Assembly: GCF_036365525.1 (NCBI RefSeq)
Contig: NC_090403.1
Span: 47,927,095 to 47,991,094, forward strand
Source of the DNA: Heterodontus francisci
Taxonomy: Eukaryota
Length of the DNA stretch: 64,000 bases
Reading direction: 5' to 3'
Part shown: one piece after another, positions 5,200-39,100 of the stretch
Numbering within the stretch: the first letter of the stretch is position 1
Layout: each line of letters starts with the position of its first letter
Program-made: the position numbers and the translations under genes
The notes under the pieces: generated by a model
Told to the model about the DNA's origin: nothing
Databases searched by the model: none
What the model saw: only the letters and a program-made list of their open reading frames with translations

Positions 5200-6220
5200 G
5201 TGTGGAACTCTGAGGGTGTACACATTTAAGGGTGTTAGAGAGGAAAGAGATGTCAGAGCTGGGGTGGTAGTTGGACAACACAGATGGGTTGAAGGTGAAC
5301 GTTTGAAGATGAGGTGATGATAACAGTTTTTGAAACGGAGAGGGAAGATGCCTGAGGAAAGGACGGCAATAACAATCGCAGCTAGTATGAAGGGCGGGAG
5401 AGAATGTTGAGTAATGAGGAGTTGAAGGAGGAGGATCAAGGGAGCAGGAAATAGGTCCCAGGGAAGACTAAAGTTAGAGAAAGCATGTGGAAAGTGGGGA
5501 TGAATGCAGAATATCAGGATCAGAGCTGGATTGGGTGGGAGACGAGGAAAGAGGGAAGGGAATGGAGAAGAAGGGGCAGAGACAGTTTCATGGACAGTCT
5601 TAATTTTACTGTCAAAAAAATCCATGAGGTCCTTGCATTTGGTGTTGGATGTGAAGGAACAGGAGTTGGGGAACAGAGATTTGAGGAGGAGAAGGCAATC
5701 TACAAGGGGTCAAAGCTGGAATGGGTTCCCTCCAGGATGATCTTGGAATAATAGGAGATTTTGAGTCCAGAGACTGAGACACAGTAATGTTTGGCAACTC
5801 TGGCAATTAATAGCAAGACCAACTGTGCCCCATGTGTATTCAAGTTTCCAGCTCTTAGAATTAAGAAGAAGAAAGATGATAAGATTGAGAGGATGGCCAT
5901 TACTGTGGGTATGGGTGGAGAGTTAATGTGAAGGGTGAGCTTGAGAGAGGATAGAAGAATTGAAGGAGAGGAGACTAGGGAGTTTGTCTAGGTTGAAGCC
6001 ACCAAGGATGAGGAGATGCTCATTAGAGAGCATAAGAAAGGAGAGAAGACTGGAGGTAAATCAGCATGGAGCTTTAGAGGAGGCACCAAAAAGGAATTTT
6101 AAAGAAGAGGCTGGGTGGGGTTAAAGATGGTCATGGTCCAAAGGATTAAAGGAAAGGGACCAAGGTTGGATTTGGGACCAGAGAATGAGAGCTATGCCAT
6201 CACTGCAGCAATTTGGGGGG
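5200..6220 (-). mobile_element. Old L2-like LINE fragment
   Basis: Degenerate pre-RT motifs on the minus strand (FFDSKIKTV, LSSGIFP..FK) and purine-rich plus strand. Confidence 0.5.
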
Positions 6221-6227
6221 TGCAAGT

Positions 6228-6566
6228 TGTTGTGTGATTGCCTTTGAGAGTGATGTTCCTTTAAGATCTTAGTATGCTAATGAGCCATGTGCCAGGATGC
6301 AGTCATGTGACTCAGAGCCAGAGTCACTCTGTAACTGTAACGCCTAGAGGCTGGTCCTGTATATAGTTAGCTCTGTACTGTATATATTAGTTTAGCTGTA
6401 ATAAACCTGTTAGAGATCTTCAACCACCTGGTCTCCACACATCTCATTTATGTTAGCTTCAGTGATTGGGAAGGAATCAAAAAAATGGGAGTACTCACCA
6501 TGGGAAGGAGTAGAAAAAGGAATCCAAAGGGAAAAGTAATGTGGGTTTTAATATATAAAACCATCA
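6228..6566 (+). repeat. 5' LTR, with its last ~30 bp replaced by a 111-bp copy of the 3' flank
   Basis: 6228-6454 matches 9191-9417 with about 19 mismatches counted by eye; terminal CA at 6565-6566 abuts the PBS. Confidence 0.85.
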
Positions 6567-7332
6567 TGGTGGCAGCTGTGGTGAGAAGACAGAATTTAAG
6601 ATTGAAGGCCACAGGGAAAACTGCTTTAAAAACTGCCTCCCTACAGCTAAAAGGGAGAAAGTAAAATAAAATACTGGCCCAAACAGCGAAAGAAAGAAAC
6701 ACCTACCTCAAGCTGTAGAAGACAGAGTGCTGAACGACAGGCTGCAAATCAATCACTGCAATCGGGTGAGTCATTGTCCCAATGGTCCAGGAATCCCTGT
6801 TGAAAGAAAGCTTTGAGATGCTTGCAAAGTTGATTTTTTTAAAGGCTCAGTAAAAGAAAAAAACAGGGAAAACCCAATCTCTATCTCAGGCTGATTGATT
6901 GTTTTCAAAGACTCCCCTCCCAGGCTGATTGAAGTCGGTGCCATTACAGGAGGCGTCCGACAGCAAAAAATGCAGGAATCCTCCAGCTTGCAGCTAAAGC
7001 TTTAAAAAAAATCATCAAACCACGTAAACACAAAAAGCTTTCATTCACGCAGACAGAGTTTTTAAAAACTCATAAAACCACCCAAGCCTGAAGAATTGCC
7101 TATTGAACAGCTGTATAAACAAACTGAAGCAGAAAAAAGCACTTGAAATGCCTATTGCACATCTGTGTAAACAGACAGACAAGAGTGCTGGAAGCTAGAT
7201 AAACAGACAAGCACTGGCAAACACCTGCTCCTGTCCATCAAAGCAGCCAAGAGAGTTGTTTTTAAAGGGAAAACAGCACAGACTCATAGAATAAGGCTTA
7301 AAGCAGGTTTTAAGCAAAAGAACAGCAGGAAT

Positions 7333-8560
7333 ATGGATACCAAATTTCCCAGCATGAACTGGAAGGCCATGGATATCCTATCCAAGTGCCAACTTTTCAA
7401 AGGATGCAGTTATGCTGCACAGATCAAATAATTGTAGAACCAGAAAAGCAAGCTGTAAAAATACTAATAGCAATTGGAAATGAGGGATTACACAGAATCA
7501 ATACCTCAGGCTTATCTGACAAGGACCAGAAAGATACCACAAAGATAGGGAAAATGCTGGAAGATCAGCTCAGATTAAGAGCGAATTTTCAAATTCATCG
7601 CCTGGAATTGATGTCCACATTCAACCGCCACAGGAATCAATAGACCTGTTTGTCAGTAGATGCTGTAGTAAGGGCACTGTATGCGATTTTTCAGAAGCTG
7701 AGCTTTCAGACAGAGTAATAGAGCTGGTGATTGTATCAAAACCTATTGAAGCGTTTCAGAAGGACCTCTTGGGGAAAAAGAAAGGCCGCAGCATTGATGC
7801 ACTATTGGAAGATGGCAGGAAATAGGAAGCCATTGTAGCTGGACAACAGCATCTGCAAGCAAAGTTGCAGCCAACAGTATCGGCATGACAACCAGGTCAA
7901 AAAGAGCAAGCAAGATGTGTGGTAAGTGTGGTTGGTCCCACTCACCACGACGTTGTCCTGCATTTCAAGACCTGTGCAAGGCATGCGGTGCAAAAGGTCA
8001 CTGGACCCACCTATGCAGGAAATCTGGCTCCAAAGATGCAGCCAGAAGCCACAGTAGGACACAAGCAAGGGGCAAGGAAAGCAGCAGAGACCTGCGTAAA
8101 TGTAATCCGATACATGAAGTCCATTGTGAAACGGACCTGAGACAAGACTCAGAGAGAAGCAATTCCCAGGCAAAAGATGAACAGGTGTTCCTTATTGTGA
8201 ACCTGACACATCATGTTGATGAAGTCAAATAACTGGAAGCTTTCGCCACAATTAACATCATGTGCCCAAAGAAAGCTGGCAAATATACACCGGCATTAGT
8301 GCAAATATCCTACCAGTCCGAATACTCAAAGATATGTGCTGGAGTCATTGGAAATCAATGATACAACTGACAACTGCCAAGTTATCTGCATACAATGGGT
8401 AACCCATCCCATGCAGTGGCACACTGGCAATGCAATGCAGATATGGCAAGTTAGCGTGGAAACTACAAACATTCTACCTAGTAGATGCGAGCAGAGCAGC
8501 AGTGGCAGGACTACCAGCGTGTAAGCACCTCAACATCATCTACAACCACGAGAGCATTGC
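7333..8560 (+). pseudogene. Disrupted Gypsy gag and aspartic protease
   Basis: Gag motif ESIDLFVSR..CDF and twin zinc knuckles CGKCGWSH..RCPA..CKACGAKGHWTHLC. Protease remnant (D)TGISANILP...FYLVD..AVAGLPACKHLNII. Several stops and frameshifts; the catalytic Asp codon appears deleted near 8288. Confidence 0.8.
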
Positions 8561-8569
8561 CAAGGGGAA

Positions 8570-9052
8570 ATCTCCAAGGACCAGAACCCTCTCGCAGACT
8601 CTGACCAGCATCAAACGGTGCAGTCTGGAAACTCAGCAACAGCACAACTACGCCACACCTTCACTTCTGCTATCTAGAGAACCGCCAGCACCACGCGAGC
8701 CAGAACTGACAGGTACCGCCATGAGGCCACGTACTCTTCCCCAAACAAGTCCTTGACCATGAGCCCAAGCCCTTCAGATGTGGAGGATGAGGAGAGGCGA
8801 TGGACATGCAGTGCCTTGAGGAGGCAGAGGAGGAATGAGTTGAAGCATTGTCTGTTGGCTCTTCGAGATGAGGTGCTGGAACTTTCCAAGAATGATAAGG
8901 CCTCAAAAGTGGTCATCTTAAGAAAAGCAACACAGTATGTTAGCAGGCTGAAGGCAGAGCAACAGAAACTGAATGCAGAGAGGGAGAAACTTCAGAAAAA
9001 TCGGCAACAGCTGAGACGCAAATTCCCCGAGCAAGAGTTGTCAAACCACTGA
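8570..9052 (+). pseudogene. Captured Myc-family C-terminal fragment (Myc box IV and bHLH-LZ)
   Basis: KRCSLETQQQHNYATPS (Myc box IV) is in the protease frame. After a one-base frameshift near 8753 comes [49 protein letters not shown] plus a leucine zipper, then a stop at 9052. Confidence 0.9.
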
Positions 9053-9190
9053 GACGATATATGGACTTTTGAGCTGCTATATTTTTAAATTTCACAATCT
9101 CTATCCATGTGTAAATAATTTTGATGTTATTTAATTTTATGTGTATTTTTACTTTTAGCATACGAGGCTTATCTTTGGAAAGAAAGGGGA

Positions 9191-9448
9191 TGTTGTGTGA
9201 TTGCCTTTAAGAGTGATGTCCCTCGGAGATCTTAGTATGCTAATGAGCTACGTGCCAAGATGCAGCCATGTGACTCAGAGCCAGAGTCACTCTGTAACTG
9301 TAACACCTAGAGGCAGGTCCTATAAATAGTTAGCTTTGTAGTGTATATATTAGGTTAGCTGTAATAAATCTGTTAGAGATCTTCAACCAACTGGACTCCA
9401 CACATCTCATTTATGTTGCATCAGACAACATAAAAAGAACTCATTACA
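9191..9448 (+). repeat. 3' LTR (258 bp)
   Basis: TG...CA ends, preceded by the polypurine tract; contains TATAAA and AATAAA. Confidence 0.9.
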
Positions 9449-10419
9449 CAAGCAATGGAATCTCTAGCTTCAGTGATTGGGAAGGAATCAAAAAAATGGG
9501 AGTACTCACCATGGGAAGGAGTAGAAAAAGGAATCCAAAGGGAAAAGTAATGTGGATTTTAATATATAAAACCATTCGGAAAGAAGCCTGGGAGTTCAGG
9601 TCTTCTGATTTACTATTTCTGACAGTCCAGTGGATGTTTCTGTTGAAGATGAAGGACCGGATTGTTTTTCATCTAATCATGATTTTTATTAATTACCATC
9701 TTATATGTACCTGGAAAGTTACTAAACGATGCTTTTGACCATTTTCTACAGAAACCTGTTAAAAAAATGTATATTGGTTGGAGCTGCATGGTAGGAAGAT
9801 TTGAAATTCAATTAAACATTCCTTTCCAGTTTATTTTGCAAATTAAGGTTTGGAAGTTCTTCTGAAACCTTGTTCTCTTCTTTTTGATTTTATTTTCACT
9901 AACCATGCTCTATACGAGGACATATTTTCTTGTTCTCATTGCAGAAATTAACAAAGAATTGAATTGTAAAACTTATCTTCAATGTACCCAGGCAATTCAG
10001 TTGATTCAGGCAATTCAGGCAATGATAGTTTAAGATTTCAGAAGGTTTTCATCTATACTAAATCAGTGAGTTTGTTCCCTCAGTGGTAAAGTTCCAATAT
10101 AGGCAGGTGTAAGTTTGAGAAGTTTTTTTTTGTACTCAATTGGGACATTCAACCCATTGGATGGAAGTGAGCTTGACTGTACAATACTTCAAGAATGGCA
10201 ACTGCAGTTGACTTTTATTTCGATATATTAATACATAAGATACAGGTAATATTTGGTCTGATGATGAAATTCATGGACAGGATGGAATCTAAAACAAGAT
10301 ATCACCGTGAACATAAGAGTTGTTTTTTAATAAAAATATTGTGCATTGATGATATTTATTACCTTAGCTTATTACCTTAGTTTTTCTTCACTCCTGCTAT
10401 AAAGGTACTGAGTCTTACT

Positions 10420-17024: not shown

Positions 17025-18455
17025 ACATACAAACATACGAATTAGGAGCAGGAATGGGCCACTCAGCCCTTCGAGCCTGCTCCACCATTCAATAAGTTCA
17101 TGGCTGAACTGATTACTCCACATTTCCACCTACCCCGATAACCTTCCACCCCCTTGCTTATCAAGAATCTATCTTTTTTTTTTATTCATTCATGGGATGT
17201 AGGCGTCACTGGCCAGGCCAGCATTTATTGCACATCCCTAATTGCCCTCTACCTCTGCCTTAAAAATATTCAAAGACTCTGCTTCCACCGCCTTTTGAGG
17301 AAGAGAGTTCCAAAAACTCACAATCCTCTGAGAGAAAAAAATTCTCCTCATCTCTGTCTTAAATGGGCGACCTCTTATTTTTAAACAGTGACCCTCTAGT
17401 TCTTGATTCTCCGACAACACGAAACATTCTTTCCACATCCACCCTGTCAAGTCCCCTCAGGATCTTACATGTTTCAATCAAGTCGCCTCTTACTCTTCTA
17501 AATTCCAGCAGATACAAGCCTACCCTGTCCAATCTTTCCTCGTAAGACAGCCCGTCCATTCCAGGTATTAGTCCAGTAAACCTTCTCTGTATTGCCTCCA
17601 ACGCATTTACATCCTTCCTGAAATAAGGAGACCAATACTGTACACAGTACTCCAGATGTGGTCTCACCAATGCCCTGAAAGCTGAAGCATAACCTCCCTA
17701 CTTTTGTGTTCAATTCCCCTCGTGATAAACGATAACATTCTATTAGCTTTCCTAATTACGTGTTGTACCTGCATACCAACCTTTTGCAATTCATGTACTG
17801 GGACACCCAGATCCCTCTGCATCTCAGAGCTCTGCAATCGCTCACCATTTAGATAATATGCTTTTTATTTATTCTTCCTGCCAAAGTGGACAATTTCACA
17901 CTTTCTCACATTATACTCCATTTGCCAGATCTCACTTAATCTATCTATATCCCTTTGTAGTCCCCTTCACAAGTTACTTTCCTACCTATCTTTGTGTCAT
18001 CAGCAAATTTAGCAACCATACCTTCGGTCCCTTCATCTAAGTCATTTATATAAATTGTAAAAAGTTGAGGCCCCAGCACAGATCCCTGTGGCACACCACT
18101 CGTTACATCTTGCCAAACAGAAAATGACCCATTTATGCCTACTCTCTGTTTCCTGTTAGCTAGCCAATCTTCTATCCATGCCAATATGTTACCCCCTACA
18201 CCATGAGCTTTTATTTTCTGCAATAACCTTTGAAGTGGCACCTTATCAAATGCCTTCTGGACATCGAAGTACAATACATCCACCGGTTCCCCATTATCCA
18301 CAGCACATGTAACTCCCTCAAAGAACTCCAATAAACTGGTTAAAAATGATTTCCCTTTCACAAAACCATGTTGACTCTGCCTGATTACCTTGAATTTTTC
18401 TAAATGCCCTGCTATCACCTCTTTAATAATAGCTTCTAACATGTTCCCTAAGATA
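17025..18455 (-). mobile_element. CR1 LINE (HER1-like) 3' portion
   Basis: RT motifs QHGFVKGKS, KAFDKVP, GVPQGSVLGP, KFADDTK, VRPHLEYCVQ. A short SINE/LINE tail is nested at ~17175-17246. Confidence 0.9.
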
Positions 18456-18884
18456 GCTCATCCAAATTAATATCGCTCCACACATGAACCTAAACAGAAG
18501 GTCACGTAACATAGTCTGGATGACATCACAGTGGAGTTCCATTCCTGTTCCCCACAAGCATACACATGCCAAGTGAGCAGTATGCTAGCTAACCCACTCA
18601 TCTTGGTTCCTCATAGTGAAACTCCCAATTAATACCACTCTGCTTTTCCCTCTCCCCCTGGTGTATGTGTGTGTGTAAACTCTCCCAAAATTTTCTGACT
18701 CACTTCCTCAAGCATTATTCTACTTCTCGATTTTAATTCAACTTCCAGGGAATTCAGGCTTGAACTCAGTCAGAAGCTGAATAAGTCAGCATGTCTTGGT
18801 GGGGAAAGAAAGATAAAATAATATTGGTCTTCCTGCATGTACTGACCACTACAGTTCTGTCTTGTGGTGTATATATCTAATGAC

Positions 18885-19985
18885 TAATACTGAAGAAGAA
18901 ATTTTCCTCCACACAAGATCAAGGTTGTTCAACCTTGCCCGTCTAAGAGTGAAATCCAAAGTACGGAAAGTCCTCATCAGGGAACTCCTCTTTGCTGACG
19001 ATGCTGCTTTAACATCTCACACTGGAGAGTGCCTGCAGAGTCTCATCGACAGGTTTGCGGCTGCCTGCAATGAATTTGGCCTAACCATCAGCCTCAAGAA
19101 AACAAACATCATGGGGCAGGACGTCAGAAATGCTCCATCCATCAATATCGGTGACCACACTCTGGAAGTGGTTCAAGAGTTCACCTACCTAGGCTCAACT
19201 ATCACCAGTAACCTGTCTCTCGATGCAGAAATCAACAAGCGCATGGGAAAGGCTTCCACTGCTATGTCCAGACTGGCCAAGAGAGTGTGGGAAAATGGCG
19301 CACTGACACGGAACACAAAAGTCCAAGTGTATCAAGCCTGTGTCCTCAGTACCTTGCTCTCTGGCAGTGAGGCCTGGACAACGTATGTCAGCCAAGAACG
19401 ACGTCTCAATTCATTCCATCCTCGCTGCCTCCGGAGAATACTTGGCATCAGGTGGCAGGACCGTATCTCCAACACAGAAGTCCTCGAGGCGGCCAACATC
19501 CCCAGCTTATACACACTACTGAGTCAGCGGCGCTTGAGATGGCTTGGCCATGTGAGCCACATGGGTGATGGCAGGATCCCCAAAGACACAGTGTACAGCG
19601 AGCTTGCCACTGGTATCAGACCTACCGGCCGTCCATGTCTCCGCTTTAAAGACGTCTGCAAACGCGACATGAAGTCCTGTGACATTGATCACAAGTCGTG
19701 GGAGTCAGTTGCCAGTGATCGCCAGAGCTAGCGGGCAGCCATAAAGGCGGGGCTAAAGTGTGGCGAGTCGAAGAGACTTAGCAGTTGGCAGGAACAAAGA
19801 CAGAAGCGCAAGGGGAGAGCCAACTGTGTAACAGCCCTGACAAACAAATTTTTCTGCAGCACCTGTGGAAGAGCCTGTCACTCTAGAATTGGCCTTTATA
19901 GCCACTCCAGGCGCTGCTCCACAAACCACTGACCACCTCCAGGCGCTTACCCATTGTCTCTTGAGATAAGGAGGCCAAAGAATTG
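18885..19985 (+). mobile_element. 5'-truncated RTE-clade LINE (BovB-like)
   Basis: LLFADDAAL, FTYLGS, RLRWLGHV, GRP..RFKD and a C-terminal CxxC..H..C knuckle; one internal stop at 19729-19731. Confidence 0.9.
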
Positions 19986-36159: not shown

Positions 36160-39100
36160 TTTTTTTTTAATTCAGTCATGGGATGTGGACGTCGCTGGCT
36201 AGGCTAGCATTTACTGCCCATCCCTAATTGCCCTTGAGAAGGTGATGATGAGCTGCCTTCTTGAACCACTGTAGTCTGTGTGAGGTAGGTACACCTACAG
36301 TGCTGTTAGGAAGGGAGTACCAGGATTTTGGCCCAGCGACAGTGAAGGAACGGCGATATAGTTCCAAGTCAGGATGGTGTGTGACTTGGAGGGGAACTTG
36401 CAGGTGGTGGTGTTTCCATGCATTTGCAGCCCTTGTCCTTCGAGGTGGTGGATGTTGTGGGTTTGGAAATTGCTGTCTAAGGAGCCTTGGTGTGTTGCTG
36501 CAGTGCATCTTGTAGATGGTACACACTGCTGCCGCTGTGCATCGGTAGTGGAGGGAGTGAATGCTTGTGGATGGAGTGCCAATCAAGCGGGCTGCTTTGT
36601 CCTGGATGGCGTCGAGCTTCTTGAGTGTTGTTGGAGCTGAACCCATCCAGGCAAGTGGAGAGTATTTACACTCCTGACTTGTGCCTTGTAGATGGTGGAC
36701 AGGCTTTGGGGAGTCAGGAGATGAGTTACTCGCTGCAGGATTCCTAGCCTCTGACCTGCTCTTGTAGCCATGGTATTTATATGGCTACTCAGTTCAGTTT
36801 CTGGTCAATGGTAACCCCCTGCATGTTGATAGTGGGGGATTCAGTGATCGTAATGTCATTGAATGTCAAAGGGAGATGGTTAGATTCTCTCTTGTTGGAG
36901 ATGGTCATTGCCTGGCATTTGTGTGGCGTGAATGTTATTTGCCACTTATCAGCCCAAGCCTGAATATTGTCCAGGTCTTGCTGCATTTCTACACGGAATG
37001 CTTCAATATCTGAGGAGTCGTGAATGGCGCTGAACATTGTGCAATCATCAGCGAACATCCCCCTTCTGACCTTATGATTGAAGGAAAGTCATTGATGAAG
37101 CAGCTGAAGATGGTTGGGCCTAGGACCCTACCCTGAGGAACTCCTGCAGTAATGTCCTGGAGCTGAGATGATTGACCTCCAACAACCACAACCATCTTCC
37201 TTTGCGCTAGGTATGGCTCCAACCAGCAGAGTTTTCCCCCTGATTCCCATTGACTTCAGTTTTGCTAAGGCTCATTGATGCCATACTCGGTCAAATGCTG
37301 CTTGATGTCAAGGGCAGTCACTCTCACATCACCTCTTGAGTTCAGCTCTTTTGTCCATGTTTGAACCAAGGCTGTAATGAGGTCAGGAGCTGATTGGCCC
37401 TGGTGGAACCCTAAACTGAGTGTCACTGAGCAGTTTATTGCTGTGCAAAAGCTGCTTGATAGTACTGTCAATGATACCTTCCATCACTTTACCGACGATT
37501 GAGAGTAGACTGATGGGGTGATAATTGGCTGGGTTGGACGTGTCCTGCTTTTTGTGTACAGGACATTGCCGGTTAGATGCCAGTGTTGTAGCTGTACTGG
37601 AGCAGCTTGGCTAGGTGCATGGCAGGTTCTGGAGCACAGGATTTCAGTACTATTGCCGGAATATTGTCAGGGCCCATAGCCTTTGCAGTATCCAGTGCCT
37701 TCAGTCGTTTCTTGATATCACGCGGAGTGAATTGAACTGGCTGAAGAATGGCATCTGTGATGCTGGGGACTTCAGGAGGAGGCCAAGATGGATCATCAAC
37801 TCGGCACCTCTGGCTGAAGATTGTTGCAAGTGCTTCAGCCTTATCTTTCGCACTGATGTGCTGGGCTCCCCCATCATTAAGGATGGGGATATTTGTGGAG
37901 CCACCTCCTCCAGTTAGTTGTTTAATTGTCCACCACCATTCACAGCTGGATATGGCAGGACTGCAGAGCTTGGATCTGATCCATTGGTTATGGGATCGCT
38001 TAGCTTTGTCTATCGCATGCTGCTTATGCAGTTTGGCATGCAAGTAGTCCTGGGTTGTAGCTTCAACAAGTTGACACTTCATTTTGAGTTATGCCTGGTG
38101 CTGCTCCTGGCATGCCCTCCTGCACTCTTCATTGAACCAGGATTGATGCCCTGGCTTGATGATAGTGGTAGAGTGGGGATGTGCCAGGCCATGAGATTAC
38201 AGATTGTGGTTGAGTACAATTCTGCTGCTGCTGGTGACCCACAGCACCTCATGGATGCCCAGTTTTGTATTGTTAAATCTGTTCGAAATCTATCCCATTT
38301 AGCATGGTGGTAGTGCCACACTACACGGTGGAGGGTATGCTCAATGTGAAGGCAGGACTTTGTCTCCACAAGGACTATGCGATGGTCACACCTACCAATA
38401 CTGTCATGGACAGATGGATCTGCAGCAGGCAGATTGGTGAGGATGATGTCAAGTATGTTTTTCACTCTTGTTGGTTTCCTCACCATATGCCGCAGACCCA
38501 GTCTAGCAGCTATGCCTTTTAGGACTCGGCGAGCTTGGTCAGTGGTGCTACCGAGCCACTCTTGGTGATGGACATTGAAGTCCCCCAACCAGAGTACATT
38601 CTGCGCCCTTGCCACCATCAGTGCTTCCTCCAAGTGGAGTTCAACATGGAAGAGTACTGATTCATCAGCTGAGGGAGAGTGGTGGGTGGTAATCAGCAGG
38701 AGGTTTCCTTGCCAATGTTTGACCTGATGCGATGAGACTTCATGGGGTCTGGAGTCAATGTTGAGGACTCCCAAGGCAACTCCCTCCCGACTGTATACCA
38801 CTGTGCAGCCACCTCTGCTGGATCTGTCCTGCTGGTGGGACAGGACATACCCGGGGACATTGTCTGTAAGGTATGATTCGGTGAGTATGACTATGTCAGG
38901 CTATTGCTTGATTAGCCTGTGGGACAGCTCCCCCAACTTTGGCATAAGCCCCCAGATGTTAGTAAGGAAGACTTTGCAGGGTCGACAGAACTGGGTTTGC
39001 CGTTGTCACTTCTGGTCCCTAGGTCGATGCCGGGTAGTCCGTCCGGTTTCATTCTTTATTGACTTTGTAGCGGTTAGTTACAACTGAGTGGCTTGCTAGA

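Follow-up and report, generated by a model that had tools for sequence, protein, structure and literature searches.

MC29-like transforming retroviruses carry an intron-less myc that is fused in frame to gag and replaces pol, and they depend on a helper. Host transcripts are also captured by LTR elements of animal genomes. In the LTR-mediated retrocopies described in the available text of PMC5131818, partial spliced mRNA replaces the internal ORFs between the LTRs, microsimilarity at the switch points has a median of 6 bases, and the products spread secondarily without autonomy; maize Bs1, in the same text, has 1-5 copies. The crocodilian elements CrocERV29 and CrocERV31 hold the mRNAs of KIT-ligand and nectin3, respectively. 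As far as the available part of PMC4299795 describes them, both are retroviruses, present in 9 and 6 copies, with near-whole ORFs for which purifying selection is reported.

Here we analyse a window of 64,000 nucleotides from the 6.0-Gb genome of the shark Heterodontus francisci. At 6228-9448 it contains a decayed non-autonomous Ty3/gypsy LTR element from which RT, RNase H and integrase are absent, with part of the host mych gene in place. The family to which it belongs works like gag-myc transduction of the MC29 type, with an in-frame gag-myc fusion in place of pol and helper dependence, yet it lies outside the transforming-retrovirus group and is not of retroviral origin. Unlike those viruses, it descends from elements with an RT nearest Ty3, has no env, keeps the protease and has no Myc activation domain; moreover, most copies have lost the basic-region Glu, and the spread was through the germ line, without infection. 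The family has the marks of LTR-mediated retrocopies: an intron-less partial mRNA, microsimilarity at the switch points (7 bases here) and secondary amplification with common switch points. It differs from the cases in the available text of PMC5131818 in its cargo, a member of a proto-oncogene family, in its at least eight amplified junction types and in the apparent movement of the cassette among gag-protease backbones; the 1-5 copies of Bs1 compare with ~2,600 candidates here. Like CrocERV29 and CrocERV31, it combines a germ-line LTR element with a captured growth-related host mRNA, but in contrast to those two, in so far as the available part of PMC4299795 covers them, it is a gypsy element whose captured fragment sits within the polyprotein as a fusion, and purifying selection is not significant. 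The literature searched, with most subscription journals, Repbase and Dfam outside its scope, held no description of a myc-carrying shark family.

RESULTS

Structure of the element in the window

The element has paired TG...CA LTRs, a primer-binding site, a polypurine tract (PPT) and a short target-site duplication. Its parts are as follows.

6223..6227, plus strand: 5' target-site duplication, identical to 9449-9453 at 4 of 5 bases (one mismatch)
6228..6454, plus strand: 5' LTR, final ~30 bases missing; 92% to the 3' LTR over 227 nt
6454..6564, plus strand: 111-base copy of the downstream flank 9465-9575 (110/111 identical), at the expected 5' LTR end
6567..6584, plus strand: primer-binding site; 10 other copies have an identical 10-mer after the 5' LTR
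7333..8229, plus strand: gag remnant with two zinc knuckles (zf-CCHC_3, Pfam E 2.2e-5)
8233..8551, plus strand: putative aspartic-protease remnant, collinear with parent copies that run on into RT
8552..9024, plus strand: captured part of mych exon 3 (89% identity with the host gene), its frame broken at 8692-8696
9033..9072, plus strand: last codons of the parent pol, in a different frame from the Myc piece (T5 junction)
9173..9190, plus strand: PPT
9191..9448, plus strand: 3' LTR, 258 bases, TG...CA

We take the primer-binding site to be of the tRNA-Leu type. Among other full-length copies, 13 of 19 have 4 or 5 of 5 flank bases matching. The flank copy at 6454-6564 is far closer to its source than the two LTRs are to each other, and is either a much later rearrangement (a templated insertion) or an assembly artefact. 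The rest of the window (17248-18448, 18817-19731, 38079-38900 and many repeats of 50-340 bases) abounds in dispersed repeats and longer open frames, which are probably LINE/SINE remnants.

The captured piece of 473 bases encodes box IV, an NLS-like linker, the bHLH and most of the zipper, and the final 8 host codons are absent. The box IV region gives a weak Myc_N Pfam match (E 0.02). The bHLH ORF at 8678-9052, picked out in an earlier sequence-only reading of this locus, is real (Pfam HLH E 3.5e-10), and that reading was also right that the protease-like stretch from 8289 shares one frame with Myc box IV, with a single stop at 8400. It had the gag frame reach the protease across a small deletion. 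That deletion is present near 8290, where it shifts the frame and takes the codon of the catalytic Asp, but gag itself is broken: judged against one parent copy, it has frameshifts near 7398, 7617 and 7862, stops at 7823 and 8230 and an in-frame loss near 8070. An extra base near 8752 had been thought enough to join box IV to the bHLH; alignment to the host exon rules out a break there and puts it ~60 bases upstream, at 8692-8696. Nor is 9050 the stop of Myc. Similarity to the host ends at 9024, beyond which lies the pol tail in another frame, and the Myc frame of this copy stops at 9050 inside element sequence.

Altogether, five frameshifts and three internal stops disrupt the window copy, which is dead. 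Its lesions are private or rare: of the 68 copies in which the codon at 8400 is aligned, two have a stop there, the window copy being one, and an indel in the bin of the Myc break occurs in 3 of 135.

Parents, family size and age

First-look searches gave candidate counts that are lower bounds and not copy numbers: 4,942 for the Myc-to-PPT stretch of the window, 2,594 for a 190-base probe of host exon 3, 950 for an exon 2 probe and 1,727 for the RT stretch of a parent, a count that is less sensitive because the query is decayed. We typed 148 exon 3 copies, the window included; they are the best matches to the window, the host gene or Pfam, and therefore not a random sample.

Myc-free relatives (median ~5.1 kb) run on into RT, RNase H and integrase within the same LTRs. 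In one such parent, L113, the domain order is RVT_1, RT_RNaseH, Integrase_H2C2 and rve, with a protease ahead by motif alone. The parental RT is nearest Ty3 (chains at E 8e-18 and 6e-17), with an 'Enzymatic polyprotein' chain at 2e-17 and Pr125Pol-type chains at 5e-10 or weaker. The parental pol tail extends to the PPT, leaving no env, and one parent has a single frame from gag to RT with scattered stops, as in a single-ORF gag-pol. Pfam recognised no protease in the window copy or in one parent copy; the putative identity comes from a D-T/S-G motif and its place between the zinc knuckles and RT. Another Myc-free copy, L054, has an internal deletion that takes part of RT and RNase H, so other non-autonomous derivatives exist.

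The sampled copies are all old and differ little in age, with mean LTR-LTR distances of 0.113 for type C (n = 21), 0.110 for A (8), 0.115 for B (8) and 0.129 for the parents (4). A processed pseudogene inside one LTR element is ruled out by the recurrence of the same junctions at many loci, each flanked by LTRs and target-site duplications of its own. Over 5900-9800, two other organisms yield contigs of the family, single ones spanning the Myc end together with the short tail (8987-9223 in X5 and 8993-9184 in X8). The capture is therefore not limited to this species label. These contigs leave the flanks uncovered and so show no orthologous insertion; their RNA status is a guess, depth cannot rank the parts, and the host gene also matches this stretch.

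A decayed RT/integrase copy (L115, G000:C7:124358000-124366600) has a pol tail that switches into an exon 3 Myc piece and the short tail, where the junction, judged on the nearest long block, does not keep the frame. Its junction has no second copy among the other 39 of the 40 scored matches in which an RT-bearing class with Myc was sought, and it looks like a one-off recombinant of helper and cargo.

The donor is a spliced mych mRNA

A Myc_N search found three intron-containing host myc genes, on C5 (L001/L003), C3 (L002/L004) and C16 (L050), which are MYC-like, MYCN-like and mych; a separate MYCL-like gene was not seen among 119 scored of 1,624 candidates. The donor is the C16 gene. Its 89% match over 8552-9024 and its product, P0003, labelled mych of Heterodontus francisci, exclude a MYC- or MYCN-like donor. 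We found orthologs of mych in five other sharks, while proteins of the element type bear the Heterodontus francisci label alone among the matches listed.

Exon 2 abuts exon 3 without the intron in 77 of 79 copies that have both exons, and the template was therefore a spliced mRNA. Since the type in the window has exon 3 alone, intron loss is established on two longer types, A and B. Even the longest type begins late in exon 2, past a box II-like motif, so that the N-terminal activation boxes are absent.

Junction types and reading frame

Three 5' junctions are common. In B, the longest type, a 7-base overlap links pol to late exon 2; A, with an overlap of equal length, leaves pol 31 codons sooner; and in C, the type found in the window, the end of the protease meets exon 3 with 1 base in common. 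In clean alignments, which leave aside 23 unclean and 2 unclassified clean ones, the junction is in frame in 12/12 A, 43/49 B and 61/62 C copies.

At the 3' side, with 20 copies untypable, there are five types. T1 runs from the zipper end into the full pol tail and is in the pol frame in both of its 2 copies. T2 and T4, with parts of the pol tail deleted, are in the pol frame in 16/20 and 11/12, and T3, which combines a pol-tail deletion with the loss of 7 zipper codons, in 5/5. The commonest type, T5, keeps the last codons of pol alone and, in 72 of 77 copies, is shifted relative to the pol frame; its frame ends ~21 codons later, near the natural stop. Of the window-type copies, 22 of 42 extend ~21 codons beyond the Myc end and 13 stop at the position of the window copy. 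The longest 3' junction also has an overlap at the switch point.

Seven of the eight amplified junctions are thus in frame (three of three 5' types, four of five 3' types). The sequence-only reading had taken the in-frame fusion as a hint of selection that chance would also give one time in three. The case against chance is stronger than that because there are eight amplified types, seven of them in frame: of the words that parent pol has in common with mych, 33-42% are in phase, and under that null at least 7 of 8 has P 0.003-0.012, for a tally that is post hoc and made on nested, not independent, types.

At the level of the family, per-copy counts support one frame from gag through protease to Myc. 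After the gag Met, no frameshift is common to more than 5 of 39 window-type copies, and no high-frequency frameshift or stop is common in Myc or gag-protease, where few are expected anyway. The idea of one ancestral polyprotein of about 570 codons thus holds as to the single frame, and its length, counted on one parent copy and the host exon, is nearer 600.

Could the Myc piece be a pure passenger, with no selection on frame, its phase set by chance and by microhomology and its spread owed to the ease with which short non-autonomous elements copy? The in-phase bias is appreciable (42% for shared 7-mers), the 5' junctions alone give P 0.04-0.07, and T5 is out of frame. Further, in the available text of PMC5131818, 14 of 17 young fly retrocopies have their longest ORF in frame with the parent protein, and non-autonomous elements are argued to multiply with ease. 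Against this stand the four additional in-frame 3' events, which bring the combined P to 0.003-0.012, and the lack of high-frequency lesions, though few would be expected. We regard the passenger without frame selection as unlikely.

Selection on gag-protease and Myc

Trees of the copies were close to star-like, the Myc tree giving no usable subfamilies and the gag tree parting most B from many C. We therefore used pairwise net divergence, obtaining dN/dS from pairwise distances of natural copies with the internal branch taken as between-type minus within-type divergence. For gag-protease, dN/dS between types was 0.21-0.50 and significant, so constraint is within reach of the method. Between B and C, net dS is 0.116 for gag-protease and 0.023 for Myc. 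This fivefold difference means that the cassette probably changed backbones, that the gag-protease constraint may therefore belong to helper lineages, and that an origin of A and C from B by deletion alone is doubtful. A 12-base in-frame deletion in the gag spacer, present in 13 of the 39 copies of type C and in 2 of the 8 parents, likewise hints at recombination of type C with several lineages of helpers.

For Myc, dN/dS between types (0.45-1.4) was never significantly below 1, at low power (net dS 0.01-0.03). Net values for exon 3 were 0.69, 0.72 and 1.36 with 80 copies, and 0.45-0.73 with 110 copies in four groups (bootstrap P 0.06-0.33), the synonymous signal being absent for one pair. The net value from early to late types was 0.45-0.51 (bootstrap P 0.06-0.15), so weak constraint is possible; the within-group baseline was 0.72-0.90. 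Paths from element to host gave 0.18-0.48, as expected with a constrained host gene. Non-CpG changes that rose in the element lineage number 9 non-synonymous to 2 synonymous, compared with a terminal ratio of 2.25 (P 0.52). Such a count is improbable under strong constraint (P 0.0008-0.006 for dN/dS of 0.2-0.3) and less so at 0.5 (P 0.05). Seven of the 9 amino-acid changes fall at residues invariant in six sharks, with 56% expected under neutrality. The sequence-only reading had named neutral evolution of the myc part among subfamilies as what would refute it, and that is the pattern seen, at low power. A useful Myc finds no support.

Loss of the basic-region Glu abolishes E-box recognition. 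The His5-Glu9-Arg13 motif of bHLH proteins serves DNA binding, according to the available part of PMC8250158. In the window copy the His and the Glu are both gone, and with them the motif. Across the family, the Glu is kept in 11/40 B, 0/16 A and 0/63 C copies, against a background retention of 82%; the His is kept in 13/63 type C copies, and Arg13 mostly.

These losses could reflect selected disarming. Having no activation domain, the Myc bHLH-zipper is likely to be dominant-negative, and the intact, translated domain might have harmed germ cells, so that lineages without DNA binding spread best. Retention of the Glu in B but in none of 79 A and C copies, the His counts in C and the 7 of 9 changes at invariant residues agree with this, as does the rank of the shortest type as commonest (26 of 39 exon 3 probe matches). 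However, neither the excess at invariant residues over 56% nor that over the ratio of 2.25 is significant, and serial founder effects give equal fixation. We consider selected disarming very unlikely.

Possible release of a Myc fragment

The catalytic Asp is present in 27/36 C, 13/15 A, 15/21 B and 6/8 parent copies, so the founders of each type probably had an active protease. The type C junction presumably lies near the protease end, by analogy with retroviral proteases. Beyond that join A retains 17 and B 48 more pol residues, so a natural cleavage site could survive, and protease-mediated release of the Myc piece is plausible.

A released C-terminal fragment might then have been useful to the element and selected for, for example by binding Max or changing germ-cell growth. 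The in-frame junctions, an Asp frequency like that of the parents, a bHLH-zipper retained in nearly all shortened types and the early-to-late dN/dS are all compatible with this, and by rough candidate counts the Myc-bearing class is at least as numerous as the RT-bearing one (2,594 vs 1,727). But purifying selection is not significant, DNA-contact and other invariant residues have been replaced, boxes I-II were never captured, and one amplified type lacks 7 zipper codons. To us a useful fragment appears very doubtful. Its boldest form, in which gypsy independently reached the gag-myc design and the released bHLH-zipper was tuned into a germ-cell modulator that binds Max, raising Myc elements to or above helper numbers, strikes us as quite improbable.

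DISCUSSION

The account that we hold to be probable, though with considerable reserve, is that the Myc piece is translated passenger cargo: the frame was selected to stay open, and Myc activity was not. The observed structure, intron loss, junction overlaps, common frame, spread and decay would follow if a single-ORF Ty3/gypsy element packaged spliced host mych mRNA, and RT switched onto mych and back at short shared words within the particle, as in the model set out in the available text of PMC5131818. RT, RNase H and the integrase core would thereby have been replaced by ~240 Myc codons with both ends in frame. The product would then have been copied by autonomous relatives and shortened several times, and the divergence between backbones suggests that the cassette moved to other gag-protease backbones by recombination.

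The variants that spread kept the frame open nearly to the PPT. A likely cause is that translation had to proceed almost to the end of the RNA, which may have served, for instance, to escape decay of messages with long 3' UTRs or to provide Gag-protease in cis; the literature searched on decay and translation held nothing relevant to this point. In either case the Myc residues would ride along and decay. What weighs against translated cargo is that T5, the most frequent 3' type, departs from the pol frame, that the 7/8 tally is post hoc, nested and drawn from a best-match sample, that the early-to-late dN/dS of Myc is as low as 0.45-0.51, and that the gag-protease constraint may be that of the helpers.

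For the annotation of this genome, at least six proteins labelled 'myc-like' or 'N-myc-like' (P0001, P0002, P0004, P0005, P0007 and P0013) look like copies of the element and appear not to be new paralogs (P0001, P0002, P0004, P0005 and P0007 were inspected). Capture of host genes by LTR elements is known, with 1-9 copies in the cases cited, as given in the available text of those sources; here a myc-family fragment came to thousands of germ-line copies by way of a gypsy element. The nested series of junctions records both the trimming of a captured gene and its passage among helpers. Whether such cargo is kept for its protein or for an open frame alone can now be tested, and the present data favour the frame.
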